From: Candidatus Omnitrophota bacterium
GTDB lineage: Bacteria > Omnitrophota > Gorgyraeia > Zapsychrales > Fredricksoniimonadaceae
Assembly (NCBI GenBank): GCA_030650275.1
Contig: JAUSEK010000015.1
Coordinates: 3,834 to 67,833, forward strand
DNA length: 64,000 bases
Reading direction: 5' to 3'
Below the pieces are notes generated by a model that saw only the letters and a program-made list of their open reading frames with translations, was not told the origin of the DNA and searched no databases. Positions within the stretch are counted from its first letter, which is position 1; each line of letters starts with the position of its first letter. A program made the translations under genes and the position numbers. Below are positions 48,369-64,000 of the stretch, piece by piece.

Positions 48369-48612
48369 GTTGATTCTGTCGTTTTGGCTCATTAGTTTTT
48401 GCTATTTTTTGGATAAAGGATTGTCAATAACTGAAGTATAACACATTATATATAAGCGGCAAATTTTTGCAAAATTTTTTACGCATTTATTTGCTTATAT
48501 TGCAATAGGTTACGTCTTTTCTCCAAAATTTTTTAAATATATTCCAAAACTTTGTTCTTATAAGTAATAAAAATATTAAGAAAGCGTTTTCTTTGTGAGC
48601 ACATGACTTACG

Positions 48613-48851: not shown

Positions 48852-49490
48852 ATGGAATTCAATGAGTTTCTCAAAAAATACCAAAACCTGCCGCTTTTAA
48901 ATACTGATCTCCTTTTGACCGGAGAAACGGATCCCCGCTTATTACGGGTCCAGCTGTCGCGTTGGGTCAAAGCAGGGCATCTCTTTCGATTGAAACGGGG
49001 AGTCTATGCTTTTGCGCCGCACTTTCAAAAAATTCTCCCTTCGCCCTATCTGATCGCTTCAGTCCTGACCCGGCCATCCTATGTGAGCCTGGAAAAAGCC
49101 CTAGAATTCCATGGGCTCATTCCGGAGGCGGTTTTTACGGTCACATGTGTGACCACCAAAAGGCCGGGCCGGTTTGAAACACCGCTGGGGAGGTTCAGCT
49201 ACAATCACGTCCGGCCGCAATTGTTCTGGGGGTATGCTTCAGTCCTGCTTGAGGACCAGTCCGGATCCATGGCCCATCCGGAAAAAGCGCTTCTGGACCT
49301 TATTTATTTAAAGGCGCCGCGACTGACCAAAAATTATCTGGAGGGGCTGCGGCTGCAAAATTTTGAAAAGATCAACGCCGGTAGGCTGCTGGAATACGGC
49401 CGCAGGTTCAAGAAACCGCGCATGCTTCACGCGGCCGGGATGATCATCGCATATATGAAAAAAACGGCATCCACGGAGAAAAAACTATGA
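48852..49490 (+). CDS. abiEi: AbiEi-family antitoxin/transcriptional regulator (type IV toxin-antitoxin), with an N-terminal AbiEi_4-type winged HTH.
   Basis: The 212-aa product MEFNEFLKKYQNLPLLNTDLLLTGETDPRLLRVQLSRWVKAGHLFRLKRGVYAF… matches the AbiEi N-terminal domain pattern. Its stop overlaps the next gene's start by 4 bp (ATGA at 49487-49490), as is usual for AbiE operons. Confidence 0.75.
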   Translation: MEFNEFLKKYQNLPLLNTDLLLTGETDPRLLRVQLSRWVKAGHLFRLKRGVYAFAPHFQKILPSPYLIASVLTRPSYVSLEKALEFHGLIPEAVFTVTCVTTKRPGRFETPLGRFSYNHVRPQLFWGYASVLLEDQSGSMAHPEKALLDLIYLKAPRLTKNYLEGLRLQNFEKINAGRLLEYGRRFKKPRMLHAAGMIIAYMKKTASTEKKL

Positions 49491-50290
49491 AAGACCATTG
49501 TCTGGAGCTCGCCCGGCAACAGTCCGGTCCTTCCGAAAAATATAATGTCCTGCGGGAATACACGCAGGCCTATGTTCTCAACATCATGCAGGAGGCGGGG
49601 GCGCTGCGGTCTTGCGTGTTCGTCGGCGGAACGGCACTGCGCTTTCTGTATGATCTTCCGCGCTTTTCAGAAGACCTGGACTTCTGTGCGGTCGGCCCAT
49701 ACGATCTTGTGTTCGCTGACCTCCTGGGCAAGATCAAACAGGAGCTGGTCCTGGCCGGCTATGAGGTCAGCGTCACCTACAGCGACGATAAAACCGTTCA
49801 TTCGGCGTTTATCAAATTTGAAGGGCTGTTGTTCGAGGCCGGGCTTTCACGCTTAAAGAGCGAAAAATTCTCCATCAAGATCGAGATCGATACCAGGCCG
49901 CCCGGCGGCGCGGTCGTTGTGACAAGGGTCATCAATAAATTCTTCCCCATGGCGTTTTTAACGTATGACCTGCCGTCGTTGTTCGCCGGAAAGATGCACG
50001 CCGTCCTGAGCCGCAAATACGTCAAAGGACGGGATTATTACGATATCGCGTGGTATCTGTCTAAGCGCAAAGACCTGCTACCCAATCTTGCCCTGCTTTC
50101 CGCCGCGCTGGAACAAACGGGCTGGAAAGGACCGGCCGTGACCGGGGAAAACTGGCGGTCCGTTCTTGCGGCGCGGGTTGAACAAACGGATTGGAAGATC
50201 GTGGACCAGGACGTCAACAATTTCCTCGAGCGGCCAGAAGACCTGAAGGTGTTGACGAAAGAGAATGTTCTTCGATTGCTCGCAGAATAG
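49487..50290 (+). CDS. abiEii: AbiEii/AbiGii-family nucleotidyltransferase toxin (DUF1814).
   Basis: The 267-aa product has the characteristic motif block …VFVGGTALRFLYDLPRFSEDLDFC… of AbiEii toxins. It is translationally coupled to the preceding antitoxin gene. Confidence 0.8.
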   Translation: MKDHCLELARQQSGPSEKYNVLREYTQAYVLNIMQEAGALRSCVFVGGTALRFLYDLPRFSEDLDFCAVGPYDLVFADLLGKIKQELVLAGYEVSVTYSDDKTVHSAFIKFEGLLFEAGLSRLKSEKFSIKIEIDTRPPGGAVVVTRVINKFFPMAFLTYDLPSLFAGKMHAVLSRKYVKGRDYYDIAWYLSKRKDLLPNLALLSAALEQTGWKGPAVTGENWRSVLAARVEQTDWKIVDQDVNNFLERPEDLKVLTKENVLRLLAE

Positions 50291-50307
50291 GACGCTGTCT
50301 CTGTTTA

Positions 50308-51228
50308 TTATTTCCCGGCGCCCAAGGCCTGCAGGGGGTTATTTTGGATGAAATCAAGGAAAATAGGGCCAGCCACTAAAATAGCCACCACCGGGAAGAT
50401 AAAGAACAGGAGGGGAATAAGCATTTTCAAAGGGGCTTTTAAGGCCACGGTCTCCCCGCGCCTGAAACGGGCCTCGCGCATATCTTCGGAAAGGATGTTG
50501 AGGGCCTCGCTCACCGAGGTCCCCATGCGGTCGGCCTGAATGAGGGTGCGGGAAAAGGTGGAGAGATCCGGCATCTCATATTTGCGGGCCATGTCGCGCA
50601 AGGCGTCGCGCCGCGGCTTGCCCACGTTGATCTCCTGCATCATGCTTTTCAATTCCTCAATGATCACCGAACCGTGGGACTTTTCCACCACGTATTTGAG
50701 CGCCATCATGAAATCCAGTCCCGCGTTGACGCAAAGCCCCAGCAAGTCCACCGTATCCGGCAATTCGCGCAAAATCGTGTCCCTGACTTTCTTGATGCGC
50801 GCCTTCAGCCACAACTCGGGAAGCATATATCCGGCCGCGATGCTCATCAGAACAGAAAACAGCAGGATCTCCTTGCCGACGTAGGACACGCTGGTCCACA
50901 AAAAAATGAGGACCAGGATCTCCTTGATCAAAAAGAATTCCTCGACGGAAATAGCGGTCCTGCTCATTCCTAAGTCCGTGGCCATGCGCCTGCCCAAAGG
51001 CAAAACAGCCAACGGCTTATTAAAAAAAGCCAATTTGCTGATCATGCTAAAAATGAGCTGCAGCGGCTTTTTTTTCTTCGGCTTGACCGTAACAGGCGGC
51101 TCCATGCCTTCAACGGTGAAACTGCCAACGGGGTTTAATTTCAATGTCGGGCGGCCCTTGACAGGCATCAAAGCCAGGGCCAGGGCAAAGACGGCAAAAA
51201 AGGCGAACATCAGTGACAAGACGAGCAT
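50308..51228 (-). CDS. tadC: Tad/Flp pilus assembly inner-membrane protein, TadC-like (T2SS F-domain family).
   Basis: The 306-aa product has an N-terminal TM helix, a cytoplasmic T2SSF-type domain (…ELPDTVDLLGLCVNAGLDFMMALKYV…) and C-terminal TM helices. Confidence 0.7.
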   Translation of the reverse strand: MLVLSLMFAFFAVFALALALMPVKGRPTLKLNPVGSFTVEGMEPPVTVKPKKKKPLQLIFSMISKLAFFNKPLAVLPLGRRMATDLGMSRTAISVEEFFLIKEILVLIFLWTSVSYVGKEILLFSVLMSIAAGYMLPELWLKARIKKVRDTILRELPDTVDLLGLCVNAGLDFMMALKYVVEKSHGSVIIEELKSMMQEINVGKPRRDALRDMARKYEMPDLSTFSRTLIQADRMGTSVSEALNILSEDMREARFRRGETVALKAPLKMLIPLLFFIFPVVAILVAGPIFLDFIQNNPLQALGAGK

Positions 51229-51250
51229 GGCTATCTCCCGGTAATTGTCA

Positions 51251-51317
51251 TTCCCGAATGCTTCTGTCGGGAATCCAGTGCATTAGTGTCTGGACCCCCG
51301 ACAAATACATTCGGGGG
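51251..51317. repeat. Two related 23-nt hairpin elements in opposite orientation between tadB and tadC: TTCCCGAATGCTTCTGTCGGGAA (51251-51273) and CCCCCGACAAATACATTCGGGGG (51295-51317).
   Basis: Seen directly in the sequence. Each element has 7-bp G/C-rich stems. Together they form a larger imperfect inverted repeat. Confidence 0.45.
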
Positions 51318-51331
51318 TGACAGCGCTAATA

Positions 51332-52186
51332 TTAAATGTCCTTGAACGTTGATATCTTCAAAATACTCAACGCCCCCACCACCCACAAAACCAGACAGAG
51401 GGCCACCAATTTCTGTCCGTCGGGGGTGTGGAGCATGGGGTCAAAAAATTTGGGATTGGTCGCCGAAACGCCGAAGACGAAAACCACCGGCAACCCGGTC
51501 ATGACCGCGGCCTGGATCTTGCCCTGCACGGTCAGGGTCTGGAGATTCTGCTCGATCTTCCTGCGTTCGCGTATGGTGGTGACGATGCGCGAAAAAATGA
51601 GCGGCAAATTTCCGCCGGTCTCGCGCGCTAATAAAATGGCGGTGATCATCTGCTGAAGGCCGGGGGAGGGCATGCGCTGGTAGAGCCGGTTGAGCGACTC
51701 GTCGAGCGCAACGCCCATTTTATTCTCGCCGAGCACGATGCCGAATTCCTGCCTGATGGGCTCCGGCATTTCCTCCGTGACCGCCTCAACCGCCTGGATC
51801 AAGCTCAAGCCCCCGCGAAAAGAACTGGACATGATCATCAGCGCGTCCATCAATTGATCGTTGAATTTCGCTTTGCGGTCCCTGATGATCTTCGCGACAT
51901 ACAGCCGCGGGATAATGGCCCCCAGCGCGATCCCGACAAAGATCCCGAATACCCGCGCGTCATGAAAAAAAACAAACCCCGCCAGACCAAGGGCGGCCGG
52001 CGCGATGATCTGCAGGCGGTAGGCCTTTTGAAAATCCCGGCCCTGCAAATGAACGTCAACCTTTAAAGCAAGGTCCTTGGCGTTCTTTTCATTCATTTCC
52101 CTGGTCTTGGCAATGACCACGGGAACAAGGGTATAAGACAGCACGCCGGCACAAATGAAAAACAAAAACAAGGTCATTTCAAACAT
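51332..52186 (-). CDS. tadB: Tad/Flp pilus assembly inner-membrane protein, TadB-like (T2SS F-domain family).
   Basis: The 284-aa product has an N-terminal TM helix, a T2SSF domain (…LIQAVEAVTEEMPEPIRQEFGIVLGENKMGVALDESLNRLYQRMPSPGLQQMI…) and C-terminal TM helices. Confidence 0.7.
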   Translation of the reverse strand: MFEMTLFLFFICAGVLSYTLVPVVIAKTREMNEKNAKDLALKVDVHLQGRDFQKAYRLQIIAPAALGLAGFVFFHDARVFGIFVGIALGAIIPRLYVAKIIRDRKAKFNDQLMDALMIMSSSFRGGLSLIQAVEAVTEEMPEPIRQEFGIVLGENKMGVALDESLNRLYQRMPSPGLQQMITAILLARETGGNLPLIFSRIVTTIRERRKIEQNLQTLTVQGKIQAAVMTGLPVVFVFGVSATNPKFFDPMLHTPDGQKLVALCLVLWVVGALSILKISTFKDI

Positions 52187-52215
52187 GATACCGCGCTCCT
52201 AAACATGTGTTTTCA

Positions 52216-52569
52216 TCAGTAATACGGGTCGCTGTTGGGTTCGCGACAATTGCCGGAACATCCCTGGATAATGCCCGCTTCACACGCGGCAACATCAACA
52301 GCCGTGACGCAGGCGCGACGGCCGTTGTCGAAACAACGCTCATCATACCATGTCCTTGTGGCCGTATCGTGGGCGCACTCAACGGTGCGTTTGGGATCGT
52401 ATTGCCGGCCGAACGCAAAAGAATCGCCGGCGGTTTTCCATCGTCCGTAAAAGGCGCGCACAATAGGGCCTTTCATCCAAAACAGCGCCGCTAAAATGAT
52501 CGCGATCAAAAGCGCGTATTCAATGACGGCGCGACCGCGATTTCTAGCGACCCAGTGTGTTCTCATCAA
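52216..52569 (-). CDS. TadE-like pseudopilin with a class III (Tad-type) prepilin signal (…RGRAVIEYALLIAIILAALF…).
   Basis: 117 aa with an N-terminal G/xxxEY-type leader and a hydrophobic helix. Confidence 0.55.
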   Translation of the reverse strand: MMRTHWVARNRGRAVIEYALLIAIILAALFWMKGPIVRAFYGRWKTAGDSFAFGRQYDPKRTVECAHDTATRTWYDERCFDNGRRACVTAVDVAACEAGIIQGCSGNCREPNSDPYY

Positions 52570-55500
52570 AGGCTCCGGCAGGGCAGGGGACGAATTTGAC
52601 TTCCATGTGATTCGTCGACCGGTTGCCTGTATACACGGCGCATACCGTGGTCTTGGTCCCCTGGCTCAATAATGAATCCACCGTGGCCCAGCAACTCGCG
52701 GGGATCGTATTGAAGGGATCGCTGCCAACAGTATTGAGCATGAACGCCTGCCCGACCGATTGTTGGTCCGCCGCGGTCCCGCTGTTGATAACATAATTTC
52801 CCGCAATACCCAAACCCTGTCTCTGGCAGGCGGACAGCCCGGCGGCCGATCCCGGCACTGTGCCGGGTTTGCCAAAATGAAAATTCCACACCGGAACCGT
52901 ATTATTGAACGTCGTTGTCGCCGGGCGTTCTTCATCCCAGCGGGTGACGCGCGTCAGGACCCGGCCGTCGTAATCTTTTAACTCGGAGTGTTGTCTCGTC
53001 CACAAAAACCCGTCGGTGTCTACTTCAATATGCGGCAGATTGTCACGGTTGCCCGTGCCATACTCGCACATGCCCGCCACCGGGCATTTGCCAGGCCCCA
53101 TGCCTTCGGCCCGGACCATATGCCAATGCTGTGCCCTTGACGGATTTTTGGGATCAACGGGGCTTTGCCAGCCATACACAAGAAAATTAGGCATCTTGTC
53201 AAGATACAGCTGATAGTCCTGAAGGACAAGGAACAAAGACGGCACCGGCCGCTGGTCCGGATCGATCGTTCCGTCGGCAAGCATGGTCCCATACAGAAAA
53301 TTATCCAGCATCATCTTGCCGTGAGCGACCGTTCCCAGCGCCGCTTTGGTATTGCCCTTGATCGTTCTTAAATGTTCCTTCCTGGCCGTGAATTGCGCCG
53401 ACTGCGGCCCGGACAGATCATAGCTGTCATCCACCCATTTCTTATACAGCGATGGGGTCGCGCATGGGTCAAAGGCGGGCACGGGGCAATTTTGTGGCTG
53501 TTCAGGAGGAGCGGGTTCGCACACCAAAGACCGCGGCAATTCTTGGCAGACCGCCGGCAATGACGGGCACAGAACGCCCGACACGCTGCTTGCGCATGCC
53601 TGAAGATCGGCAAGACTATTCTGCTTGGCCGTTTCGCACGCAGAGATCTGTGCCTGGGTGCCGGTGCATATCTGGGCGGACACATCGGCAATTTGTTGTG
53701 CGATCCCGTTAAGTACCGCGGCCTTGGCGCTTGCGTCGCATGGATCAAACGAGGCGGCACAGCTGGGCGTCGCACAAGACAGGGCATCCAAAGCATCCTT
53801 GCATGTCTTGAAACGAACATCATTGGTTGAATTCCAGTCCAGGCATGCGATGACGCTGTTCAGCGATCCCCACGGGTTGCCTTTGAATTGGCCGGGGTTG
53901 GAATAGCAGCCGGGACAGGTGTCAAAGGTTTTGGTATAATCAATCTCATCGGGGGTCATTTGCGCATATTGAGGGTCGCTCTCACGCGGCATGCACCAGG
54001 CATTGAACTGCGGAAAAACATACGGTGTTATACCAAGGAACAGTCCCCTGTCGTGATAATCCTTCAAAAGATCATCCGTGGTCACGTCATCCTCGTCGCT
54101 GTTGAGCCAGGCCGTCAATGTCAGCCGCCAGGCCGTCAACCTGTTCTCAAATCGATACAAAACCCCGCCGCCCTCCTGGCAGATCAGGGCATTGCTGCCG
54201 TCGCATTCGGGGCCGATCCACACCGCGGCTTCCGGATACCATTCCTTCAAATTGGCCCTCAAAGTGTCATCATCCTGCGCTAAAAGCAGTTTGGCCCAGG
54301 CGTAGAACCCTTTCAGGGAATAAACGATGTCGTCCATCGGGTCTTCCGGCCAGTCCGCGGCTGTGGCCGGCGTGCACTTGGGGCAGGAAGTTCTGGTGCA
54401 GGCGTTTCTGGGACATTCATTATACGGCCATGTGGTGGAACAATACTGGTCTGCCCCTTCTCTCCACCAGAACCCGTTCGGGTCAAGACCGGGCTTATCC
54501 GCACAAAAGGGGGCCCGTGAGCAGAGCGGACTATCCGGGTTCACGCAATCTGGGTCATTTGGGTCCGGGCCCACCGCATGAAAAATTTGAGAGATCTTAA
54601 CCTTATCCGGCCTGCGATAGTCCCTGACACCGCCGGGGCCCGGGATCCTTAGGCCATCGCCGGTATTGCGCATGTCACCCATGTCCCAGAACAGGGAAAA
54701 TATGCCTTTGGCCTCAGCTTGGCGATCCTTGAACACTTTCTTTTCTACGTCAACCCCGAACGTGGCCAGAAAACTTGTGCCGCCGGAATATTTCGGATAG
54801 GTGGGGTCATAAATAAACGGAAAGGATGGGTCCGCTGCCGCGCATTGGGCCGGCACGGTAAGCAGACAACTGGCGGGCCGCAGGCGCTTGCCGTTGAAGG
54901 TCAGGGGCACACAGCACTTGTTGCAATGCGGATCACTGTTGGGCGTGCCATCCGGATTTTTCGGGCAGGCCTCTGTTATTTCTCCCAGCAAGGTGCCTAA
55001 CCCATCCAGGAAAACGGTAAGGTCCATGCCTGACATCGCTCTTTTAAGGGCTTTCAGGCGTTCGGTATAAAAAAATCCATACCGGCCGATCTTATCGTCG
55101 GAAGCGGGCCCGAATTTCCCGTTGGTATTGATGTCAAAATAATCAATGATCTTGCCCTGGTCCGAGACCAAACTTTGCGCGCCGGCGGACAAGCCCTGTT
55201 CCAAAAACCGGTCCTTGAGGGGCAATTTGGTATGCATTTGGTTGAAGGCCTTCACGGTCTTCACATCATTATAGACCGTGATCAGTGTGGCGGCCGCTCC
55301 CCCTATGGCTAAAGTGATCATGACGGCCGCAAGATGGGTGCCGGCCCCGGCTGTAAAATATATAATAAGGGCGGCGGCAATGAAGCTAAGAGCAACGACA
55401 ACCCAGCGCGCGAAACCGGACTTTTCAAAGCCCCCGCCCAGCGAGCTTTGGATCAGGGACTCGCCATAACTGGCAATGCCCGAAACAGTGTTGGCGGCCG

Positions 55501-55642
55501 CATTGGTGGCTGCCGTGGTCGTCATGTTCTTGATCTGCGACACGCGTCCCCAGTTGAGCGTGACGGCAAAAAAGATGAGCGCGATGGCGGCCAGTAAAAT
55601 AAGAACGAGGGCGGCTTGCCCTTTATAATTTTTCATAGTCAC
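52544..55642 (-). CDS. Large (about 1030 aa) Cys-rich TadE/TadG-like pilus-associated protein. The likely start is ATG at 55636 (MKNYKGQAALVLILLAAIALIFF…); the track start at 55642 is a GTG.
   Basis: The N-terminus has a Tad-type prepilin-like leader plus a hydrophobic helix. The remainder is an extracellular Cys/Pro/Asp/Trp-rich domain (…CNKCCVPLTF…, …CPRNACTRTSCPKCTP…). Confidence 0.6.
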   Translation of the reverse strand: MTMKNYKGQAALVLILLAAIALIFFAVTLNWGRVSQIKNMTTTAATNAAANTVSGIASYGESLIQSSLGGGFEKSGFARWVVVALSFIAAALIIYFTAGAGTHLAAVMITLAIGGAAATLITVYNDVKTVKAFNQMHTKLPLKDRFLEQGLSAGAQSLVSDQGKIIDYFDINTNGKFGPASDDKIGRYGFFYTERLKALKRAMSGMDLTVFLDGLGTLLGEITEACPKNPDGTPNSDPHCNKCCVPLTFNGKRLRPASCLLTVPAQCAAADPSFPFIYDPTYPKYSGGTSFLATFGVDVEKKVFKDRQAEAKGIFSLFWDMGDMRNTGDGLRIPGPGGVRDYRRPDKVKISQIFHAVGPDPNDPDCVNPDSPLCSRAPFCADKPGLDPNGFWWREGADQYCSTTWPYNECPRNACTRTSCPKCTPATAADWPEDPMDDIVYSLKGFYAWAKLLLAQDDDTLRANLKEWYPEAAVWIGPECDGSNALICQEGGGVLYRFENRLTAWRLTLTAWLNSDEDDVTTDDLLKDYHDRGLFLGITPYVFPQFNAWCMPRESDPQYAQMTPDEIDYTKTFDTCPGCYSNPGQFKGNPWGSLNSVIACLDWNSTNDVRFKTCKDALDALSCATPSCAASFDPCDASAKAAVLNGIAQQIADVSAQICTGTQAQISACETAKQNSLADLQACASSVSGVLCPSLPAVCQELPRSLVCEPAPPEQPQNCPVPAFDPCATPSLYKKWVDDSYDLSGPQSAQFTARKEHLRTIKGNTKAALGTVAHGKMMLDNFLYGTMLADGTIDPDQRPVPSLFLVLQDYQLYLDKMPNFLVYGWQSPVDPKNPSRAQHWHMVRAEGMGPGKCPVAGMCEYGTGNRDNLPHIEVDTDGFLWTRQHSELKDYDGRVLTRVTRWDEERPATTTFNNTVPVWNFHFGKPGTVPGSAAGLSACQRQGLGIAGNYVINSGTAADQQSVGQAFMLNTVGSDPFNTIPASCWATVDSLLSQGTKTTVCAVYTGNRSTNHMEVKFVPCPAGAFDENTLGR

Positions 55643-55890
55643 TGCCCCAGATCCACCCCGGGAGAAGCGTTGATCCTCGAGGGGTGATAAGCGTTCGATT
55701 GCAACCGTTCCAGGTTCCCCGTGGTGATCGCTGTGTTAAAAGAAGCATCGTATGCGTACTGACGCTTGGCCACGTCCATACCGACCCAGCGGAACACCTG
55801 GACCATGCCGTAAAGCAAAAACATGGCCGCGATCATGGCGAACACGAATTCAATAGTAGACTGCCCGTTGAATTTCCTCCCCCTTGTCAT
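55639..55890 (-). CDS. TadE-like pseudopilin, 83 aa if started at ATG 55890 (MTRGRKFNGQSTIEFVFAMIAAMFLLYG…). The longer track ORF to 56040 overlaps the upstream gene.
   Basis: It carries the GQSTIEF class III signal. It has ATGA-type overlaps with both neighbours at 55887-55890 and 55639-55642. Confidence 0.55.
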   Translation of the reverse strand: MTRGRKFNGQSTIEFVFAMIAAMFLLYGMVQVFRWVGMDVAKRQYAYDASFNTAITTGNLERLQSNAYHPSRINASPGVDLGQ

Positions 55891-57344
55891 GGCGCTCCCC
55901 CCAAACGCAATTGCCCCGACGCGTCCGTTTTCCAAAAATGCCCCTGCTGGTCCAGCATCCGCGAACGCACGTACAAAATCTTGCTGGCGCTGTCGAAACA
56001 GGTCCTGGCGATATTGTTGACGGAAAAACAGCCACCGCACACCTCGACAGCGGGCACTTCACTGGGCACGCCGATACCCCCACACATGCGCCCCGTGTCA
56101 TTGGACAATTGTATTTTCCGCTCGACTAAGTCCACCTGGTCCTTGCGGTTGACCGAGCGGATGAATTTTCCATCGAGATCATACGCCTTGCCCTGATTTA
56201 TCAAAAGATGATTGCCTTTGGCTGAACCAAAAGCCGGCTTGGTATAGATCGCCATATCATTCAAAAGCCCTACTTTGCCGACAGCGGCATCCGGACTGGT
56301 CATATCAAGGTCGCCTTCCTGGGAATCGAACACCACGGCCCCGGTGGCAATGCCATCGTCGTTATAATCCACCTGATAGATCGTTTCCTCCTGGCCGTCT
56401 CCGTCCACGTCAAAGGAAGGGTAGGAGCCATGGTCGGCATCAATGTGCAAGGGCTTACCGTCATCCTCATTATCGTCCATGGCCTGCACACCCCTCCACT
56501 GCCAGGTCATGTTCGCGTACAAAGACGAGGGGGGATCATTGGAAAGGTTGTCATCATGGTTGAGGTCAAAGCGTTCCGGCCCTGTCAAAAGCCCCGGACA
56601 CTGGCCGGAGGAAACACAAAACCTTTTTTCCAGGGCCTCCTGCCTGATCTCATCGCTGGCATCCTCACTGATCTCATTGCCGTCCTCCATGTTGACGACG
56701 GTTTGATAAAAGATCGGGCATCCGCGGCCACTTTTGCATGAAGAATCCCAACCGCCGCGCTGCGGCGGATCATGGACGATCGGCACAGGAGGGGCCGGGC
56801 CCTCGCAACCAGGGTCCTCCTCCGGACAGGAAAAGGAAACAGGGGCCACATAGGTTGTGGTCTCAACAAGTCCAGCTTTCGCGGAATGCACCGGACCGCC
56901 GCTGGAGCCCAAAAATCTTTTATACACAAGCCGCGCCATCGAGAAGGTGAAATGTTTACCGTTGATGAACATGTCCATAACGGGGACATGTCTGGGGTCC
57001 TGCAATTCCGACATGTCCATCGGATACATGAGCAGGTTGGTCATGCTGCCCGATCCCTGGGCCGTGAACGGCGCGCGCTCGGTGGATCCGTATTTGCCGA
57101 AATCCGGGCTCAACCGGTCTTCCAGATAAAGCATGGAAGGGCTGATGCGGCTGGTGTCGCCGGGAGTGCTTTTGGAGGACTGCACAAGGGCGTTGCGCAT
57201 GGCCTTTAAGGAGGCGTCCTGGCCCTGGCCCGAAGAAACCGCGGAACGGATGATGGCGCCCAGCACAAAAATGATGATGGCGCCGAAGATCGCCAGTTCT
57301 ATGACGGCCTGCCCTGAGCAATGTCGAAGGGCCTGTCCTTTCAA
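55887..57344 (-). CDS. 485-aa TadE-domain protein (TTG start; leader MKGQALRHCSGQAVIELAIFGAIIIFVLG) with a large Asp/Gly-rich C-terminal domain. Probably a minor pilin, adhesin or tip component.
   Basis: The N-terminus has the class III signal peptide motif GQAVIEL plus a TM helix. The C-terminal part is acidic, with DxDxDG-like stretches (…FDVDGDGQEETIYQVDYNDDGIATG…). Confidence 0.55.
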   Translation of the reverse strand: MKGQALRHCSGQAVIELAIFGAIIIFVLGAIIRSAVSSGQGQDASLKAMRNALVQSSKSTPGDTSRISPSMLYLEDRLSPDFGKYGSTERAPFTAQGSGSMTNLLMYPMDMSELQDPRHVPVMDMFINGKHFTFSMARLVYKRFLGSSGGPVHSAKAGLVETTTYVAPVSFSCPEEDPGCEGPAPPVPIVHDPPQRGGWDSSCKSGRGCPIFYQTVVNMEDGNEISEDASDEIRQEALEKRFCVSSGQCPGLLTGPERFDLNHDDNLSNDPPSSLYANMTWQWRGVQAMDDNEDDGKPLHIDADHGSYPSFDVDGDGQEETIYQVDYNDDGIATGAVVFDSQEGDLDMTSPDAAVGKVGLLNDMAIYTKPAFGSAKGNHLLINQGKAYDLDGKFIRSVNRKDQVDLVERKIQLSNDTGRMCGGIGVPSEVPAVEVCGGCFSVNNIARTCFDSASKILYVRSRMLDQQGHFWKTDASGQLRLGGAP

Positions 57345-57673
57345 AATGCACCGTCCTGACCGACTTGCATGTAACTGTTACGTTGTTCCGACGAGCGAGT
57401 GTTATCATTACGAAAGGTGGTATTGCTCAACGTCGTGATCGTTGTGTCGGATTCGGTGGCGGCTGTATATTGGGTGGTGGAATTGGTCTGCTGGGGATCA
57501 TACTGGTCGGCAAAATCGTCAACGGCGCTCTTCCATCTGCCTTGCATGCCGCGCTTGACATAACTGCTCATGCTCAAAAAGACCGCGATGATGATAATGG
57601 TCAGGACCGTGAACTCAAGTATGCTTTGCGCCCGGTGATCTCTGCGATGTCTTTGAAAATATTTGAACACCAT
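57341..57673 (-). CDS. TadE-like pseudopilin (…RAQSILEFTVLTIIIIAVFL…).
   Basis: 110 aa with a class III signal motif. It is stop-start coupled to the downstream gene. Confidence 0.5.
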   Translation of the reverse strand: MVFKYFQRHRRDHRAQSILEFTVLTIIIIAVFLSMSSYVKRGMQGRWKSAVDDFADQYDPQQTNSTTQYTAATESDTTITTLSNTTFRNDNTRSSEQRNSYMQVGQDGAF

Positions 57674-57711
57674 GCTTTCTCCGACTGTACGGGCGACCCG
57701 GCGGGTCGCCC

Positions 57712-58122
57712 CTACTGGTTCAATTTCCCGAGATTCGTCTGCGAATCGGACGTCGTATTCGTGGTCTCATTCACGGTAATATCGGCAACGCCGCCCCAGC
57801 CGGGCGTTACAACATTTTTGCTGACATGGCCCGTGACCTGTGTATTTGCCCCCACCAGATATCCCCCGGTCGCGCCCGGGTCATCGGCGTCCAGGAAATC
57901 CTGGTCGGCATTCTGTTGAGCGCCGATCTGGTCGGAGGTCACCTTCACCAAACTCTGCACGCCCCGCTTGAACAAAGGCCCCATATAAAAAAGCGCGACC
58001 GTGATGATCCCGATCAGAACAATATACTCAACGACGGTCTGGCCTTTATTTCCCATACCGGTCCCCGGCCGCGGCCCCGGGCGGAAGTTGTTCGCTATTG
58101 CTGGTCGTTTCAATGGTTTCAT
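57712..58122 (-). CDS. TadE-like pseudopilin. The probable start is ATG 58056 (MGNKGQTVVEYIVLIGIITVALF…).
   Basis: It has the GQTVVEY class III signal. The track ORF extends further 5' to 58122. Confidence 0.5.
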   Translation of the reverse strand: MKPLKRPAIANNFRPGPRPGTGMGNKGQTVVEYIVLIGIITVALFYMGPLFKRGVQSLVKVTSDQIGAQQNADQDFLDADDPGATGGYLVGANTQVTGHVSKNVVTPGWGGVADITVNETTNTTSDSQTNLGKLNQ

Positions 58123-58453
58123 TGGTTATTTTGCGAAATTGCCTGTCCGCGCCGCCGGCCAAGCCGGTCCTGACATCGCTGTTACGGCTGGTCCGGGAAT
58201 CGACTTTGCCGTAATACGGTTCATACTCGCGGGGAATGCCGCTTCCGCTGATCCCGGCCGCGGCCCTGCAATCAGGGCCGCATTCATTGGCGGCAACGTT
58301 GACCATATAATCTCTGCTGTCTTTGATCTTGGCCTGAATGGAGCGCTGGATATAGACCGTCATGGCCACGGCCGTGGCAACGACTAAAAAAAACGTCACC
58401 ACGTATTCGGGAAGGGAACTCTGGCCATTTTGGCCGTTTATGCCGCGCGCCAT
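58046..58453 (-). CDS. TadE-like pseudopilin (…GQSSLPEYVVTFFLVVATAVAMTV…).
   Basis: 135 aa with a class III signal-like N-terminus. Confidence 0.45.
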   Translation of the reverse strand: MARGINGQNGQSSLPEYVVTFFLVVATAVAMTVYIQRSIQAKIKDSRDYMVNVAANECGPDCRAAAGISGSGIPREYEPYYGKVDSRTSRNSDVRTGLAGGADRQFRKITNETIETTSNSEQLPPGAAAGDRYGK

Positions 58454-58466
58454 GAAGTTCTCCCAG

Positions 58467-58655
58467 CTATTGAGGGTTGGTCGCCCTCATCAGACGGTTG
58501 GCCATGTCCTCCATGCCATCGGTGGTTTTATTGATGGTATCGGAAAGTTTGTTCCGAAACGCCCCGCCGGGCCCGGTGAACAGGATGATCACCGCGATCA
58601 CCGCGGTGACCAACAAAATATACTCCACCGTGCTCTGGCCTTTTGTCTTCATCAT
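58467..58655 (-). CDS. flp: Flp-family type IVb pilin (MMKTKGQSTVEYILLVTAVIAVIILF…), 62 aa.
   Basis: A short product with the Flp motif G/QSTVEY and a hydrophobic helix. A GGGAG Shine-Dalgarno lies 8 nt upstream. Confidence 0.7.
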   Translation of the reverse strand: MMKTKGQSTVEYILLVTAVIAVIILFTGPGGAFRNKLSDTINKTTDGMEDMANRLMRATNPQ

Positions 58656-58702
58656 ACGCGCTCCCTACGATTTAGAAACCACTAAGGGACCCCCACCGGG
58701 GG

Positions 58703-59035
58703 TCATCTGCCCATATATTCCTGCTCGGTGTTGACGATCACCGATCTTTCCGACGTATTGGTGGTTTCGGGACCGATCAATCCGGTCGCGGAAACGCCCT
58801 GTCCGTCCACACCGAACGTCTCACGGCTCGTGCTGGACGTGTTGGTGGTCTTGATGACGTTGGTATTGCCCACCGAATACTGGTCGCCGATATCGTCGGC
58901 AGCGCTCTTTAAACGGCCCTGCACGCCGCGCTTGATGTAAAACTGGATGGACAACAGCGCGCCGATGATGATGACGGTCAGCACCGCGTATTCAAGGGTG
59001 CTTTGCCCTCTTTTTTGGCTAAAATAAGTCAACAT
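58703..59035 (-). CDS. TadE-like pseudopilin (…KRGQSTLEYAVLTVIIIGALL…).
   Basis: 110 aa with a class III signal motif. Confidence 0.5.
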   Translation of the reverse strand: MLTYFSQKRGQSTLEYAVLTVIIIGALLSIQFYIKRGVQGRLKSAADDIGDQYSVGNTNVIKTTNTSSTSRETFGVDGQGVSATGLIGPETTNTSERSVIVNTEQEYMGR

Positions 59036-59065
59036 AGAACATCCTCCTTAAGATACGATTTTATT

Positions 59066-59452
59066 TTAGTCGCCGCCGCCTGTCCCGTCGGTGCTGTACG
59101 TTGACTGCTGGGTACCGGTCCTGCTGCGGTTGGTCGTTGAGTCCGCGGCGACCAGACCCACGCCCTGACGCTTGTTCTCTTGGGCGTTACGGGTGCTGGT
59201 ATAATCGCTTTCCAGGTAATACGGTTCATACTGCGTTTGGTTGCCGATGGCGTTGGTCTGGCTGGCCAGATACTGGCTGGCATCGTGCATCCTTGCCTGC
59301 AAAGAACGCTGGGCATAGGTCTGCATCGCGATGACGCCCGCGACGACCAGGGCGATCAACAGCGCGTATTCCGCGGTGTTCTGCCCCGAGCGAAGTCGAG
59401 GGGTTTGTCCTCTGGTATTTTTAAATAAATTTCTAAACATATGTTCCTCCAT
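59066..59452 (-). CDS. TadE-like pseudopilin (…RSGQNTAEYALLIALVVAGVIAM…). An alternative start is ATG 59440.
   Basis: 128 aa with a class III signal motif. Confidence 0.5.
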   Translation of the reverse strand: MEEHMFRNLFKNTRGQTPRLRSGQNTAEYALLIALVVAGVIAMQTYAQRSLQARMHDASQYLASQTNAIGNQTQYEPYYLESDYTSTRNAQENKRQGVGLVAADSTTNRSRTGTQQSTYSTDGTGGGD

Positions 59453-59469
59453 TTATGGATGTTGTTTCT

Positions 59470-59724
59470 TTAAAATCCGGCCGTCGGGTCCACCGTGACG
59501 CCCGGCGCGGGAGTTACTCCGTTAGCGGTTGCCCCCTGGCTGTTCACCAAACGGTTGCTTATGCTCCCGATGCTGTCGGCGGTTGAGTTAAGGGTATTGC
59601 CCAAACGGCCCGTCAGTGCCGAATTCGGGCCGGTGGTAAAAAAGATCATCGCGCCGATGACCGCGGTCGCAAGCAAGATATACTCCACCGTGCTCTGACC
59701 TTTTGTCTTCATTTTCCTGAACAT
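59470..59724 (-). CDS. flp: Flp-family pilin (MFRKMKTKGQSTVEYILLATAVIGAMIFF…), 84 aa.
   Basis: It has the Flp motif and a perfect AGGAGG 7 nt upstream of the ATG at 59724. Its 5' end is near-identical to the flp gene at 58467-58655. Confidence 0.7.
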   Translation of the reverse strand: MFRKMKTKGQSTVEYILLATAVIGAMIFFTTGPNSALTGRLGNTLNSTADSIGSISNRLVNSQGATANGVTPAPGVTVDPTAGF

Positions 59725-59757
59725 ATAAATGCCTCCTGATGTATTTAAGATGCTTTG

Positions 59758-60015
59758 TTATTCGTTGGCGATCTCCTGCGTCACCGCCTTCTGGGTGGCC
59801 TGCACGGAACGGAACACGTAGGTGCTCATGGCCGCCATAGCAGCGGACACCAAGGCCACGACGATCGCGTATTCGATGAGATTTTGTCCTTTGATGTTCC
59901 TAAGGATCATCGCGGCTGCTCCTACATGAAAGATAAAGGAAGTATGCCATATAAAATAAGGGATGTCAACCCTTCGACCTAAAAATTCGCGTTGTTTTCC
60001 GACGCTATCTGACAC
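59758..60015 (-). CDS. flp: Flp-family pilin. The likely start is ATG 59910 (MILRNIKGQNLIEYAIVVALVSAAMAAM…).
   Basis: It has the GQNLIEY class III signal. The track ORF extends to 60015 and overlaps the upstream gene. Confidence 0.55.
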   Translation of the reverse strand: MSDSVGKQREFLGRRVDIPYFIWHTSFIFHVGAAAMILRNIKGQNLIEYAIVVALVSAAMAAMSTYVFRSVQATQKAVTQEIANE

Positions 60016-61295
60016 AGGACCCGGCGCCCGTTCTCATCGCGGATATTCAGGGCATTGACATTATCCGCGGCCTGCCGCAGAAAAGCAATGTGCGCATAAG
60101 AGGCAGGGGCCAGAAGGGTTATGTGTCTGCCCTGCTCAATAACCCCTTTAAGGGCCAAAACCGACTCAAAGGCATCCTGCCCAAAATCGGACGGGAAAAA
60201 GGCGCGCGCACGGGCTTGAAGCCGGGCCAAAACCCATGCCGGCTGGTCCGCAATATCCCCCCGCAAACTATCCGCCAGGGGGGACATGTTGATTTGAACC
60301 GGAGGATGGCGGTCTTTGAAGATACGCGCAATTTCATCATTTGATATATGTGGGCTAAAATTTGATAAAACTGACATATTCTTATCATATCCATCCATTT
60401 CTAGCCTTATATATCGTAATTTATGGTTATTCTGCTCCACTTCTAGATTTCTTGGCATTCCAAGAATGACATTCTTTTTTTGACGGGGGGAACAGGAAAA
60501 TTGAGCCAGGACAATTCCTCCTGCGCCCAACAAGGATGCCCGTGTCATGCCTTTACCAGCCACGCCCTCACAGGCCTGAAAAAAACTAAGGATCAAGGCG
60601 TCCGTAGCATTCTCCCCCAAGGAGCGTATGCATAAAGGATTGATATTATTAAGGATACAATCTGCGGTGTCCTGGATACAGCGCTCAATGCCTGCGGGAA
60701 AAATAGCCCTGCTAGGACCAAGGGCCTGAAAACGGCTGTCCATCTCAACACAAGAACCGTCTTCCAGATCGATCTTTAAACGTTCAACCACGGTGGATAT
60801 ATACTCCCATTCTTCTCGTAAGTTATTCAGATTTAATGACTTAATGTCTTCCAGTTTCTTGATCCCCCATACAGGACGGGGGAAAATATCCCAAAAAGTG
60901 GCTTTAATGAAAATCTCGCCCATGCGTTCCTGGACTTCGCCCCTGACCAACGGGCTGGGGGCTTGTTCCACAACACGCGGGGCCTGCTCTATGAGTTTTG
61001 GGGCAGGCGGTGGGGGTTGGAAGATCACGCCAGGCACGACATTGGCGAACAATTGCTGTTTCTTCTCCGGGGGGATCTGGAATTTGATCTTGGGTTTTCG
61101 GCCGCGAGGGATGACCACGCCATGTTCTTTTAAGACATCATGGACCGATGACTTAGAAACGACCTTTTGATGCCGTTCATGGACCAAGCCGGCGATCTCC
61201 CGGCAGGACAGACGGGGAGTTTCCTGTTTGCGTTCAATAATAAAGGAAACAACGTCTTCGGTGAGTTTATAAACAACGCCCATAGAAACCCCCAA
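59979..61295 (-). CDS. HTH-domain protein of unknown function. The N-terminal roughly 60 aa form a helix-turn-helix (…LSCREIAGLVHERHQKVVSKSSVHDVLKEHG…). The track start is TTG at 61295; ATG at 61283 is more likely.
   Basis: 438 aa with an N-terminal HTH. A 19-bp perfect palindrome sits immediately upstream (61297-61315). Confidence 0.45.
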   Translation of the reverse strand: MGVSMGVVYKLTEDVVSFIIERKQETPRLSCREIAGLVHERHQKVVSKSSVHDVLKEHGVVIPRGRKPKIKFQIPPEKKQQLFANVVPGVIFQPPPPAPKLIEQAPRVVEQAPSPLVRGEVQERMGEIFIKATFWDIFPRPVWGIKKLEDIKSLNLNNLREEWEYISTVVERLKIDLEDGSCVEMDSRFQALGPSRAIFPAGIERCIQDTADCILNNINPLCIRSLGENATDALILSFFQACEGVAGKGMTRASLLGAGGIVLAQFSCSPRQKKNVILGMPRNLEVEQNNHKLRYIRLEMDGYDKNMSVLSNFSPHISNDEIARIFKDRHPPVQINMSPLADSLRGDIADQPAWVLARLQARARAFFPSDFGQDAFESVLALKGVIEQGRHITLLAPASYAHIAFLRQAADNVNALNIRDENGRRVLCQIASENNANF

Positions 61296-61296
61296 T

Positions 61297-61315
61297 AATG
61301 TCCAGACTGGACATT
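61297..61315. promoter_or_regulatory. 19-bp perfect palindrome AATGTCCAGACTGGACATT immediately upstream of the HTH-protein gene. It is a candidate operator.
   Basis: Seen directly in the sequence. Confidence 0.4.
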
Positions 61316-61483
61316 TTCGTGGTGCGGGGCGCTGGTCCGGCGAATAAGCCGGACCGCTTAGCGCGCCTGCGAGCCAGTGAGCAGGCCGGGTTCCTTAATG
61401 TCCGCGCAGGAACGAGCACGGTGGGGGAAACCGAAGACAGGACCCGCCCTTAATAATTATTAGACATCATTTAAGATATTATT

Positions 61484-61825
61484 TCAACCGATTTGAATAT
61501 TATCGCCCATGTGTGTTTGGGAGGCGGCAATGGTGCCGGCAGAGGTCTCAATGGCGCTGTGGGCTTGCAGGAAGAATGGAGAAAATTGAAAAGGCCGGAT
61601 GTCGGGGCACAGGCCCACCGCCGTGTTCGCGCGGTCAATAAAAATGACGTCCAGCGGGAATTTCATGAACAGCATGTGGATGCTGCGGCAGGGGGTGATG
61701 ACCAGCGCTTCGCCGGAATTGAGCGCCCCGCGGCCCAGCAGTCCGGTCATGCGTTTGAGGGGAGTTTTCGCCAGCGAACCGGTCTCGGCGATCAGCGTGC
61801 CGCGGGTCAAATTACGGATGGTCAT
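61484..61825 (-). CDS. DUF192 (COG1430) family protein.
   Basis: The 113-aa product has the pattern …GLLGRGALNSGEALVITPCRSIHMLFMKFPLDVIFIDRANTAV…, which matches the DUF192 signature. It has an ATGA overlap with the upstream ATPase gene. Confidence 0.45.
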   Translation of the reverse strand: MTIRNLTRGTLIAETGSLAKTPLKRMTGLLGRGALNSGEALVITPCRSIHMLFMKFPLDVIFIDRANTAVGLCPDIRPFQFSPFFLQAHSAIETSAGTIAASQTHMGDNIQIG

Positions 61826-63978
61826 ACGTTAAAGACGGCCTTGGACAGCGGAATGCCTCTGGTCTGGAAGTCCTCGAAACATTTGGGCACAAAGCCGGTG
61901 GCGCTGTATTCGCCCAGCACCACGCCGTCGGCATTGATGCCTTTTTGTTTAAAAATGAATACGTCCTTGAGCTCCGGAAGGCCCTCGACTATTTTTCCGG
62001 TCAGCTCGGAGATCGCCGTGATCTTGCGCGACCCGTCGGAAAAACGGGAAATTTGGATAATGATGTTGATGGCGGAGGCCGCCATTTCATAAATGGCGCG
62101 GATGGGCAGTTCAATGCCGGAAAGAAGCACCATGGAGCTCATGCGCGAGAGCACATCGCGCGGGGAATTGGCGTGCAGGGTCGTCAAAGACCCGTCGTGG
62201 CCGGTGTTCATGGCCTGGAGCATGTCCAGGACTTCCGGGCCGCGGCATTCGCCGATGATGATGCGGTCGGGCCGCATGCGCAAGGTGTTGATGAACAGGT
62301 CCCGGATGGTCACGCGTCCGCGGCCTTCAATGTTGGGCGGCTTGGACTCCAGGCGCGCCCAATGACTTTTCACCAAACGCAGTTCCGCCGCGTCTTCAAT
62401 GGTGATGATGCGCTCATTGTCCGGAATGAATTGCGAAACGATATTGAGCAGTGTTGTCTTGCCCGCGCCGGTGCCGCCGGAAACGATCACGTTCTTGCGG
62501 CCGATGACGCAGGCGTTCAGAAAATCCACCATGGGCTGGGACAGGGAATGGAATTTATTTAAAAGGTCGTCAACGGTGTAGCGCTCCTGGGCAAACTTGC
62601 GGATGGTGATCATGGGCCCGCCCAGCGACAGCGGGGGGATGATGGCGTTGATGCGCGAGCCGTCGGGCAATCGGGCGTCCACCATCGGGGCGCTCTCGTC
62701 CACGCGCCGGCCCAGGGGAGCGATGATGCGGTCAATGGTGGCGCGCACCTGGTCGTTGGAAATGAAGCGCTTGTTGGTCAAAATGATCTTGCCGCGTTTC
62801 TCGACGAAGATCTCATCCTTGTTGTTGACCATGATGTCGTTGATCTCCGGGTCGGCCAGAAAATCCTCCAGCGGCCCCAGGCCGAGGGCTTCATTGACGA
62901 TCTCACGCACCAAACGCGAGCGCTCCTCATGCGAAGCGATGAAAGCGCCGGCGGCCTCGGCCAGCAATTCGGAAACGATCTTGGCCGCGGCCTTGCGGAT
63001 ATTGGCGGCCTGTGCCGGGTCGGAAAGCGCCTCGGGCGAGATCTTCTGCACGTTCATGCGCTCAACCAGACGCTGATGGATGGCTTTTTTAAGTTTGATG
63101 ACCTCGTCCTCTTCCTGCCTATAGATCGTGACGGGCGATGAGGATCCGGGGGCAATGCCGAATTTTTCCCAGAACTCATTGCCCTTCTGGGCCTGCGTGT
63201 CCGCCGCGCGCACCTTGATGACGTCCGAGGCCTGCACATACATGTCTTCAACTTCGAGTTTGCCGGCAATCTCAAAAAATGACTCGGACACGCGGGCTTT
63301 GGGGCTGTCCATGACGCAGGGGACCCCGCGGTTGAGCGCCAGGCCGACGGTCTTCCCGTCGGAGGGAACGAGGGCGAAAATGTCGCAGGCCAGCGCCGAC
63401 TTGACCTCCTGCCAGGCCACCCCGCCGCGGCTTTCAGCGCGGTTGAGAATGAGTTTGACCATCTTTAAAGGATAGTGCAGGCTCTGAAGGATGTCGAGCG
63501 TCGCCTTGACCTGATAAACAGCCAAAATGTCCGGCGTCGCGACGAGAAGAATTAAATTGGAAGAATCCAGAACGCTGATGAGCATTTCGCTGAAGGCGCT
63601 GCCGGCATCCACGACAATGTAATCATAGATCAACGCCGCCTTCTTTAAAAAAGGACGGATATTGTCGGCCGTGATGTGTCCGGTCTGGCGGATATGCGTG
63701 ACGCCGGGCAGGAACTCCAGGCCGCTGGCATGGCGCAGGACATAACCGCGGATGATGTCGGGTTTCTCGTCCTTTTCAACGGCCGCCAGAAGATCAACGA
63801 GGGATTGCGTGGGGACAAGATTGAGCATGCGGGCCATGTCCTGACCGGCCTGCACGTCCAGGTCCACGATCAGGGTTTTCTTGGCCTTAAGGGCCAGGGC
63901 GGTCGCGATGTTGACGCCGACAAAGGTCTTGCCGACGCCGCCTTTATTGCTGAAAACCGTTATGACTCTGCAGGACAT
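61822..63978 (-). CDS. tadZA: Fusion of a TadZ/CpaE-like ParA/MinD-type ATPase domain (N-terminal) and a TadA/CpaF secretion ATPase (C-terminal).
   Basis: A deviant Walker A motif ([13 protein letters not shown]) lies at residues 8-20. CpaF-type Walker A ([16 protein letters not shown]) and the helical/His-box region (…[32 protein letters not shown]…) are in the C-terminal half. An in-frame stop upstream at 63988-63990 fixes the ATG at 63978 as the first start. Confidence 0.8.
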
Positions 63979-64000
63979 AGGCTGTGATTACGAGGAGGAG

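Follow-up and report, generated by a model that had tools for sequence, protein, structure and literature searches.

Omnitrophota are abundant, uncultured, ultra-small bacteria that are thought to live as predators or parasites, and their genomes hint at how they attach to hosts chiefly through tight-adherence (Tad) loci and giant genes. Here we ask what machine is encoded at positions 50308-63978 of a 64,000-nucleotide stretch of a Candidatus Omnitrophota contig (JAUSEK010000015.1; the whole stretch is called the window below), where an initial annotation had described an atypical Tad/Flp pilus locus with neither a secretin nor the prepilin peptidase TadV, and had considered a monoderm-like system. 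We find that the locus is an intact Tad-type pilus cluster of a lineage-typical, already published layout, and not a new type of system. The region is likely to encode one half of a diderm Tad (type IVc) pilus machine, namely the filament and the parts in the cytoplasm and inner membrane, laid out in the manner typical of Omnitrophota.

An intact Tad/Flp cluster in lineage-typical order

The region forms one densely packed Tad/Flp cluster of 17 intact open reading frames (ORFs), all on the minus strand, with intergenic spacing of -23 to +200 nucleotides (nt) and 4-nt stop/start overlaps at three junctions (ATGA, TTGA, and ATGA). Transcription proceeds from a TadZ-like ParA/MinD::TadA fusion through a DUF192 gene, a helix-turn-helix (HTH) protein gene, and 12 ORFs with prepilin signals to tadB and finally tadC. 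Such an assemblage of Tad genes far exceeds chance expectation. Both the Pfam domains and the gene order conserved in relatives bear out the earlier identification of a Tad/Flp locus with a non-canonical order (tadZ::tadA first, pilins in the middle, tadB-tadC last), and the coordinates, strand, and intactness given at that time hold for the genes then listed.

Relatives used for comparison share 96% (L001 and L088), 80% (L004 and L092), 76% (L002), 62% (L005), and 50% (L006) ATPase identity with the window, L002-L006 forming a group at 50-80%. Also used were L128, with 99% ATPase identity, and ~40 Joint Genome Institute (JGI) metagenome loci recruited via TadC; a scan of genome contigs with the ATPase as query was saturated with TadA of all phyla, two Omnitrophota loci being among the matches. 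Most Omnitrophota relatives carry one-to-one orthologues in identical order, which is partly rearranged in L006. Since the unusual order is kept across these relatives, it represents a trait of the lineage and not an assembly artefact. Identity to the orthologues in L001/L088 is 96% for tadZA, 94% for flp1, 88% for tadB and tadC, 83% for the HTH protein, 65-84% for the smaller pilin-like genes, 62% for the 485-amino-acid (aa) protein, and 49% for the 1030-aa protein. The 17 genes are given below in order of transcription, with arrows marking predicted prepilin processing sites.

61822..63978 (-): tadZA, a single ORF of 718 aa; ParA/CbiA/AAA_31 at aa 4-184, T2SSE (PF00437) at aa 365-642, 199.5 bits
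61484..61825 (-): DUF192 (COG1430) protein, 113 aa; Pfam match of 58.2 bits; start overlaps the tadZA stop (ATGA)
59979..61283 (-): HTH protein, 434 aa, cytoplasmic; N-terminal homeodomain-like HTH_32, E=1.6e-6, under the Pfam cutoff
59758..59910 (-): flp1, a 50-aa prepilin, MILRNIKG↓QNLIEY, mature form ~42 aa; candidate major pilin
59470..59724 (-): 84-aa prepilin-like protein, KTKG↓QSTVEY; Class_IIIsignal 16.4 bits
59066..59440 (-): 124-aa minor-pilin-like protein, RSG↓QNTAEY
58703..59035 (-): 110-aa minor-pilin-like protein, KRG↓QSTLEY
58467..58655 (-): 62-aa Flp-like prepilin, MMKTKG↓QSTVEY; Class_IIIsignal 24.4 bits, above the 23.7 cutoff
58046..58453 (-): 135-aa minor-pilin-like protein, NG↓QSSLPEY, with Glu at +6
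57712..58056 (-): 114-aa minor-pilin-like protein, MGNKG↓QTVVEY; Class_IIIsignal 19.9 bits; the longest ORF would start at 58122, and the L001 orthologue is called at 114 aa
57341..57673 (-): 110-aa minor-pilin-like protein, HRA↓QSILEF
55887..57344 (-): 485-aa modular pilin, SG↓QAVIEL signal, long N-terminal alpha-helix, ~420-aa beta-rich acidic head
55639..55890 (-): 83-aa prepilin-like protein, FNG↓QSTIEF; orthologue called in L001, L002, and L004 (75-80 aa)
52544..55636 (-): 1030-aa membrane protein, pilin-like N-terminus KG↓QAALVL without Glu5; diverges faster than any other gene of the cluster
52216..52566 (-): 116-aa minor-pilin-like protein with 6 Cys, NRG↓RAVIEY; orthologue directly before tadB in all relatives
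51332..52186 (-): tadB, one T2SSF domain (63.7 bits); inner-membrane platform
50308..51228 (-): tadC, one T2SSF domain (63.4 bits); second platform protein, last gene of the cluster

The fused tadZA product consists of a ParA/MinD (TadZ-like) domain from aa 1 to ~250, a linker, and a secretion ATPase of the TadA/CpaF type at aa ~330-718; its Walker A motif is KGGVGKT, and an N-terminal receiver-like domain is missing. Among NCBIfam models, MinD matches the N-terminal part, and TadA-family, VirB11, and FlaI models match the C-terminal part, the best of all being TIGR03819 (TadA-family) with 314 bits, under the equivalog cutoff. The protein is 100% identical to one from a Candidatus Omnitrophota metagenome-assembled genome (MAG) at NCBI; the best 120 matches listed are all of fused length, the taxon-named ones being Omnitrophota. 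Its ParA domain matches the separate TadZ of canonical loci with E-values of 1e-12 to 1e-47. Many apparent full-length matches turned out to be adjoining separate genes; once these were set apart from true single ORFs, genuine fusions were found in Omnitrophota, Bdellovibrionota/Oligoflexia, Elusimicrobia, WOR-3, and two unclassified MAGs, and separate genes in the other phyla retrieved. The ParA domain of separate TadZ proteins begins at about residue 125-200, behind a receiver-like domain, whereas in nearly all fusions it begins at residue 1; the fusions of Omnitrophota and Bdellovibrionota retain a Walker A of the KGGVGK[T/S] type. In a rough neighbour-joining tree of TadA domains the fused forms lay close together yet were interleaved with long unfused TadAs, and the tree did not resolve a single from a multiple origin.

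Reciprocal phmmer searches paired tadB with the first and tadC with the second platform gene of canonical loci, tadC also giving weak matches to archaeal UpsF and BasF. The HTH gene and tadB are separated by 12 successive ORFs of 50, 84, 124, 110, 62, 135, 114, 110, 485, 83, 1030, and 116 aa. The earlier count of about ten small pilin-like genes and two giants was right as to the existence of a pilin block; the full set numbers 12, the 83-aa gene at 55639-55890 having been overlooked. Common to these ORFs is an N-terminus composed of a short basic leader, the motif [G/A]↓Q-x-x-x-E-[Y/F/L], and a ~19-residue hydrophobic helix. Glu occupies +5 or +6 in 11 of the 12, the 1030-aa protein being the exception, and ten ORFs besides flp1 bear the Flp-type G↓xxxxEY processing motif. 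The labels "giant TadE-domain proteins" for the two largest products and "tadE-like" for the mid-size ones had to be dropped, given that neither TadE (PF07811) nor Tad (PF13400) matched any of the 12 proteins at E<=1 (small) or E<=0.01 (large); we infer from the signal motif that putative functional analogues of TadE/TadF are among them.

We take flp1 as the candidate major pilin because it is small, highly conserved, and preceded by the best promoter-like site. It is the best-conserved pilin gene, with 94% identity in L001, 66-83% in most of the distant Omnitrophota loci, and 51% in two. Against Flp_Fap it scores 18.9 bits (E=0.0013), under the cutoff of 32.2, so that flp1 carries the family's motif and falls short of membership by hidden Markov model (HMM). 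The promoter-like site is a match to consensus only, and an Rfam scan of 48000-64000 drew a blank, with no cyclic di-GMP or other riboswitch before the pilin genes.

59941..59969 (-): best sigma-70-like promoter match, TTGACA-17-CATACT with an extended -10 TG, ~30 nt upstream of flp1

Secretin and prepilin peptidase

The start of tadZA lies 22 nt short of the window end. That the window holds neither a secretin nor TadV is literally true, its remainder consisting of a giant ORF and an AbiEi/AbiEii pair, with no match to a Peptidase_A24 HMM. Directly upstream of the fused ATPase, L002-L006 encode RcpC (PF16976) and a secretin (PF13629 and PF00263) with a C-terminal TonB_C domain; where the sequence reaches far enough upstream (L002-L005), rcpC is preceded by a SurA-like Rotamase_2 peptidyl-prolyl isomerase (PPIase). 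In L001 (96%) the upstream sequence amounts to 819 nt and encodes the C-terminus of a secretin with TonB_C. In L128 (99%) the upstream ORF ends in ...IVYSQAGVAPSPP and a stop codon, with a TonB_C C-terminus, and is followed by TCACAG. The final bases of our window, TCC-TCC-TCG-TAA-TCACAG (...SSS-TAA-TCACAG), align with ...PP-TAA-TCACAG of L128; the intergenic stretch upstream of tadZA is not conserved relative to L001, and the usable match comes from L128 alone.

63988..64000 (-): presumed end of the upstream gene, last three codons SSS plus TAA, its body beyond the window; a putative RcpA-type secretin with TonB_C

From the relatives and this alignment we strongly infer that the stop codon of the secretin lies at 63988-63990 and its body past position 64000. 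Taken with the secretin seen beside tadZA in relatives, the 13-nt match marks the absence of a secretin as almost certainly an artefact of the window edge and not a monoderm trait, and the earlier secretin-less interpretation arose solely from this boundary. RcpA is also reported throughout Omnitrophota in the accessible text of Seymour 2023 (PMC10066038). TonB_C is present on the Tad secretin in six of six Omnitrophota loci (L001:1-819, L002:8236-9987, L004:8149-9969, L005:8146-9969, L006:696-2366, and L128:3-155), as against none of the 39 Tad secretins retrieved from outside the phylum, and may tether the Omnitrophota secretin to peptidoglycan or another envelope partner. Neither a TPR lipoprotein (TadD) nor RcpB is present in L002 and L004 within the 10 kb of upstream sequence annotated with Pfam.

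The missing peptidase is a different matter. The A24 HMM, built from 19 TadV-like ORFs of canonical loci (three of them spot-checked against Pfam PF01478), found nothing significant in the window, nor in ~50 Omnitrophota loci with flanks of up to 10 kb, and recovered TadV in more than 30 other loci, including four of six from Bdellovibrionota; the other two, among them Bdellovibrio L027, also lack a match. As the model works on canonical loci but finds none in Omnitrophota, the absence of TadV noted initially is upheld as a real property of the locus in this lineage. A canonical arrangement, with secretin and peptidase immediately past 64,000, had been named as the outcome that would overturn the initial interpretation; its secretin half now most probably holds, given the relatives and the 13 nt, and its peptidase half does not. 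In Bdellovibrio bacteriovorus no TadV is reported from the tad loci of the strain examined, and the type IVa pilus (T4aP) peptidase PilD processes Flp1 (10.64898/2026.07.08.737194), and T4aP are near-universal among Omnitrophota according to the available text of Seymour et al. (PMC10066038). Because of these two observations, sharing of PilD appears plausible in Omnitrophota as well: cleavage of the prepilins would fall to an A24 peptidase encoded away from the locus, the PilD of a type IVa pilus being the most plausible one.

Large, accessory, and giant genes and the probable function of the machine

The two largest products of the pilin block have no significant match in Pfam or the PDB. 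The head of the 485-aa protein contains 11 Cys and motifs of the DVDGDG type, and its AlphaFold2 model (65 sequences; predicted local distance difference test, pLDDT, 80.4; predicted TM-score, pTM, 0.76) shows a 48-residue helix at positions 10-57, followed by a beta domain. No Pfam domain matched, and the PDB was blank both by sequence and by Foldseek (best E=1.2). All taxon-named members among its 100 homologues are Omnitrophota. The model and the prepilin signal mark it as a candidate for the tip or for an adhesin; the DVDGDG motifs had raised the option of a PilY1 or FG-GAP-like propeller, which neither Pfam nor fold search supported.

The 1030-aa protein has three predicted transmembrane (TM) segments (the two extra ones at 79-97 and 103-121), a large extracytoplasmic domain, and 38 Cys. 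It gave no Pfam or NCBIfam match and no significant PDB match by sequence or Foldseek; its AlphaFold2 model reaches a pLDDT of 69.5 and a pTM of 0.57, and only 19 homologues were detected, none with a Pfam domain, the taxon-named ones being Omnitrophota. Foldseek matches of the two large proteins to integrin alpha (E=1.2) and to HopQ/ClyA-family alpha-toxins (E=0.16-3) in the PDB were rejected as insignificant and of tiny TM-score. Going by topology, position, and divergence, the 1030-aa protein may act in the manner of TadG, either as an anchored component or at the tip, and it is a candidate for determining specificity. Its gene (52544-55636) is only 49% identical to its counterpart at L001:9192-12335, though the ATPase is 96% identical, and closer copies occur in other MAGs (71% and 58%), a pattern that suggests rapid diversification or cassette exchange. 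Separately, a distant Omnitrophota Tad locus carries, at the position of the 485/1030-aa genes, two large genes, one of which (1410 aa; L118:4527-8759) has a match to Sushi/SCR repeats; this hints that the large proteins may swap adhesion-type modules between lineages.

DUF192 follows tadC or sits inside the tad cluster in ~30 non-Omnitrophota Tad loci from Firmicutes, Acidobacteriota, Chloroflexota, and Proteobacteria (L009-L084; for example L010:13884-14228, L015:14103-14483, and L082:14045-14413), whereas in Omnitrophota it follows tadZA. Essentially no literature was found, within the library searched, on DUF192 as a recurrent, unnamed Tad accessory gene. The HTH protein has no TM segment, occupies the same position in L001, L002, and L004, and falls among 572 representative homologue clusters that mainly share the N-terminal 80-140 aa; its C-terminal region showed no further Pfam domain in ten distant homologues, and a PDB sequence search was blank. 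It is a putative locus-specific regulator.

Downstream of tadC the window contains two further elements.

48852-49490 / 49487-50290 (+): AbiEi antitoxin / AbiEii nucleotidyltransferase toxin (type IV toxin-antitoxin), between tadC and the giant ORF
3..48392 (-): giant ORF of >16,129 aa, ATG at 48392, open through the window start; not a part of the pilus

The giant ORF starts 1.9 kb downstream of tadC and carries Peptidase_C39 at aa 207-284, a domain described in such giant proteins in the available text of West-Roberts 2023 (10.1101/2023.11.21.568195). Seven of the eight relatives whose sequence extends 10 kb past tadC have an ORF of 1,700 aa or more on the same strand, which begins 0.5-4.9 kb after tadC and runs off the locus. 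Since relatives carry other small inserts between tadC and this ORF, the site of the AbiE pair looks like a variable spot. A region at aa ~13,008-13,494 of the giant ORF (window ~7911-9371, minus strand) matches the catalytic region of eukaryote-type 1,3-beta-glucan synthase (GT48/FKS1), both in Pfam (PF02364, E=6e-45) and in the yeast FKS1 structures 7xe4 and 7yuy (residues 809-1272, E=4.6e-20). A glucan-synthase-like module is unusual in a bacterial giant surface protein, and no mention of a GT48 domain was found in the searchable text of either giant-gene preprint.

In the Tad machine that these genes would build, a TadZ-like positioning domain shares one polypeptide with the TadA assembly ATPase, the split platform would consist of TadB and TadC, and flp1 would polymerise into the filament. 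Eight or nine mid-size proteins may constitute a priming or tip complex in the manner of TadE/TadF, with the 485-aa modular pilin putting a large globular head on the pilus and the Cys-rich 1030-aa protein serving as a TadG-like membrane-anchored or tip component, whose fast divergence suggests that it touches partner surfaces that vary. Genes for the remaining half, at the outer membrane, would lie just upstream, past 64000, and encode the SurA-like PPIase, RcpC, and an RcpA secretin ending in TonB_C. The machine probably serves attachment to the cells of a host or prey, and would do so together with the giant surface protein whose gene lies downstream.

Several points weigh against this reconstruction. 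The secretin and rcpC lie outside the window, their presence on the contig following from relatives and 13 nt. The search for a prepilin peptidase came up empty both in the window and in the flanks of the Omnitrophota loci, which makes prepilin processing a prediction. None of the 12 pilin-like proteins reaches the Flp_Fap or TadE threshold, and one alone passes Class_IIIsignal. The three predicted TM segments of the 1030-aa protein suit a filament-extracted subunit poorly, and the roles given to both large proteins are guesses from topology, position, and divergence, because their folds match nothing in the PDB. For the source organism, moreover, the machine is a prediction from its genes.

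Three other explanations deserve consideration. A machine resembling a type II secretion system (T2SS), forming a pseudopilus that exports, displays, or processes the giant protein or its C39-cleaved fragments, is the reading of West-Roberts 2023, where the locus is called "type II secretion system-like" in the text available (10.1101/2023.11.21.568195). The recurrence of a same-strand giant ORF after tadC, here and in seven of eight relatives, fits it well, as does the unusually large number of minor-pilin-like genes (11), which recalls pseudopilin sets. However, the architecture is that of a Tad system (split TadB/TadC, RcpC, a TadZ domain, and G↓xxxxEY in place of G↓F/M-TLIE), equivalents of GspC, GspL, and GspM were not seen, and the tiny, highly conserved flp1 suits a polymerising major pilin. 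A multi-TM protein of >16,000 aa is also an implausible substrate for a secretin, and synteny alone does not prove coupling when variable inserts intervene, here the opposite-strand AbiE pair. We consider a secretion machine rather improbable. A monoderm-like Tad system without a secretin, as in Actinobacteria/Firmicutes, drew its appeal from the lack of a secretin ORF anywhere in the window; with tadZA only 22 nt from the edge, a secretin in six Omnitrophota loci (rcpC as well in five), a TonB_C tail in a seventh (L128), and RcpA across the phylum in the accessible text of PMC10066038, it is effectively refuted and its probability is close to nil.

Tad-type machines are also capable of serving transformation. 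A Tad-like pilus for DNA uptake (competence) reportedly operates in Micrococcus luteus, and a similar role here would find no specific support in the window: ComEA, ComEC, and DprA-like genes were unseen in it and in the Pfam-annotated flanks of relatives, and the conserved neighbours are instead a giant surface protein and a TonB_C secretin, all of which makes competence very improbable. Returning to the Tad attachment machine, it may be asked whether it forms with the giant ORF a single module for host or prey contact, a composite attack/attachment organelle of ultra-small bacteria. A pilus tipped by the 485-aa and 1030-aa proteins would then recognise the partner cell and position or deploy the giant envelope protein (C39, GT48), with the TonB_C-tethered secretin and the TadZ-TadA fusion as possible lineage-specific adaptations. 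We regard this extension as speculative and on balance unlikely; if true, it would describe a previously uncharacterised composite organelle. The coupling of Tad machine and giant protein is the more interesting question; the atypical features of the locus are genuine, lineage-typical, and largely published. Independently of that coupling, the hyper-divergent, Cys-rich 1030-aa protein is a good candidate for a determinant of host specificity.

Comparison with known systems

Two single-domain platform genes, G↓Q-x-x-x-E-Y signals, and no GspC/L/M match in Pfam or NCBIfam set the locus apart from type II secretion systems. Archaeal pili with class III signals (Epd/Aap/Ups-type) are hinted at by Class_IIIsignal, which passes in one ORF and is weak in two, and by the weak UpsF match of tadC; RcpC and a secretin in relatives, together with a TadB/TadC split as in bacteria, place the locus elsewhere.

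Canonical Tad loci are ordered flp-tadV-rcpCAB-tadZABCDEFG in Aggregatibacter actinomycetemcomitans and pilA-cpaA-F in Caulobacter crescentus. Our locus shares with them the TadA ATPase, the TadZ-type ParA/MinD protein, the split TadB/TadC, the Flp-type signal G↓xxxxE[Y/F], and, in relatives, RcpC and a secretin. Pilins stand at the 5' end of canonical loci, but between tadA and tadB here, and ~4-5 prepilin-like genes are replaced by 12 without a Pfam TadE domain. Where canonical systems have separate tadZ and tadA and a linked TadV, the two genes are fused here, the receiver-like domain is lost, TadV is unlinked, and TadD and RcpB are unseen in relatives. Modular type IV pilins, such as PilB and PilC of Streptococcus sanguinis, offer a parallel to the 485-aa protein, which combines a prepilin signal and an alpha1 helix of ~48 residues with a large grafted globular module. 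The 1030-aa protein is like TadG in its late position in the pilin block and in a pilin-like N-terminus without Glu5, and differs by two extra predicted TM segments. Neither large protein resembles a solved pilin module or vWA domain in sequence or fold.

The Tad system of Bdellovibrio provides a close parallel, being a diderm machine with secretin and RcpC, as seen in the Omnitrophota relatives, in a predatory or host-dependent bacterium, and likewise joining an N-terminal ParA/MinD without the receiver-like domain, a linker, and TadA in one polypeptide. The ATPases are only ~38-42% identical, however. In Bdellovibrionota tadB directly follows tadZA, whereas DUF192, the HTH gene, and a ~9-kb pilin block intervene here; the secretin went undetected in most of their loci, and no non-Omnitrophota secretin detected bears TonB_C. 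In Bdellovibrio tadC and other parts are scattered over the genome, whereas they are clustered here (10.64898/2026.07.08.737194). In B. bacteriovorus the TadZ-plus-linker region of TadZA is a binding partner of the polarity hub RomR, and both prolonged prey attachment and invasion depend on Tad (10.64898/2026.07.08.737194).

The closest match lies within the phylum itself. Tad complexes occur across Omnitrophota and are expressed in Velamenicoccus archaeovorus co-culture, the Tad locus of strain LiM being at CP019384.1 12382-29832, according to the accessible text of Seymour 2023 (PMC10066038). A conserved secretion/pilus locus before giant genes, with gspD/E/F-like genes, rcpC, a Rotamase_2 PPIase, and genes with class III signals, is described in the available part of West-Roberts 2023 (10.1101/2023.11.21.568195, Fig. 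7A). Several details gathered here are absent from the searchable text of the Omnitrophota papers: the TadZ::TadA fusion in Omnitrophota, the TonB_C secretin, flanks (up to 10 kb) free of TadV, ~12 one-to-one conserved prepilin-like genes, the divergence peak at the 1030-aa protein, and the unmatched 485-aa fold. The window nevertheless contains the ATPase, two T2SSF genes, 12 ORFs with signals, and the giant ORF of the West-Roberts-type locus, the upstream trio being seen in relatives. Compared with the Omnitrophota locus of West-Roberts and Seymour, it comes from the same phylum, with the same list of components and the same position upstream of a giant gene, and nothing essential differs; the window is thus a clean, intact example that refines the parts list of a known system without defining a new one.

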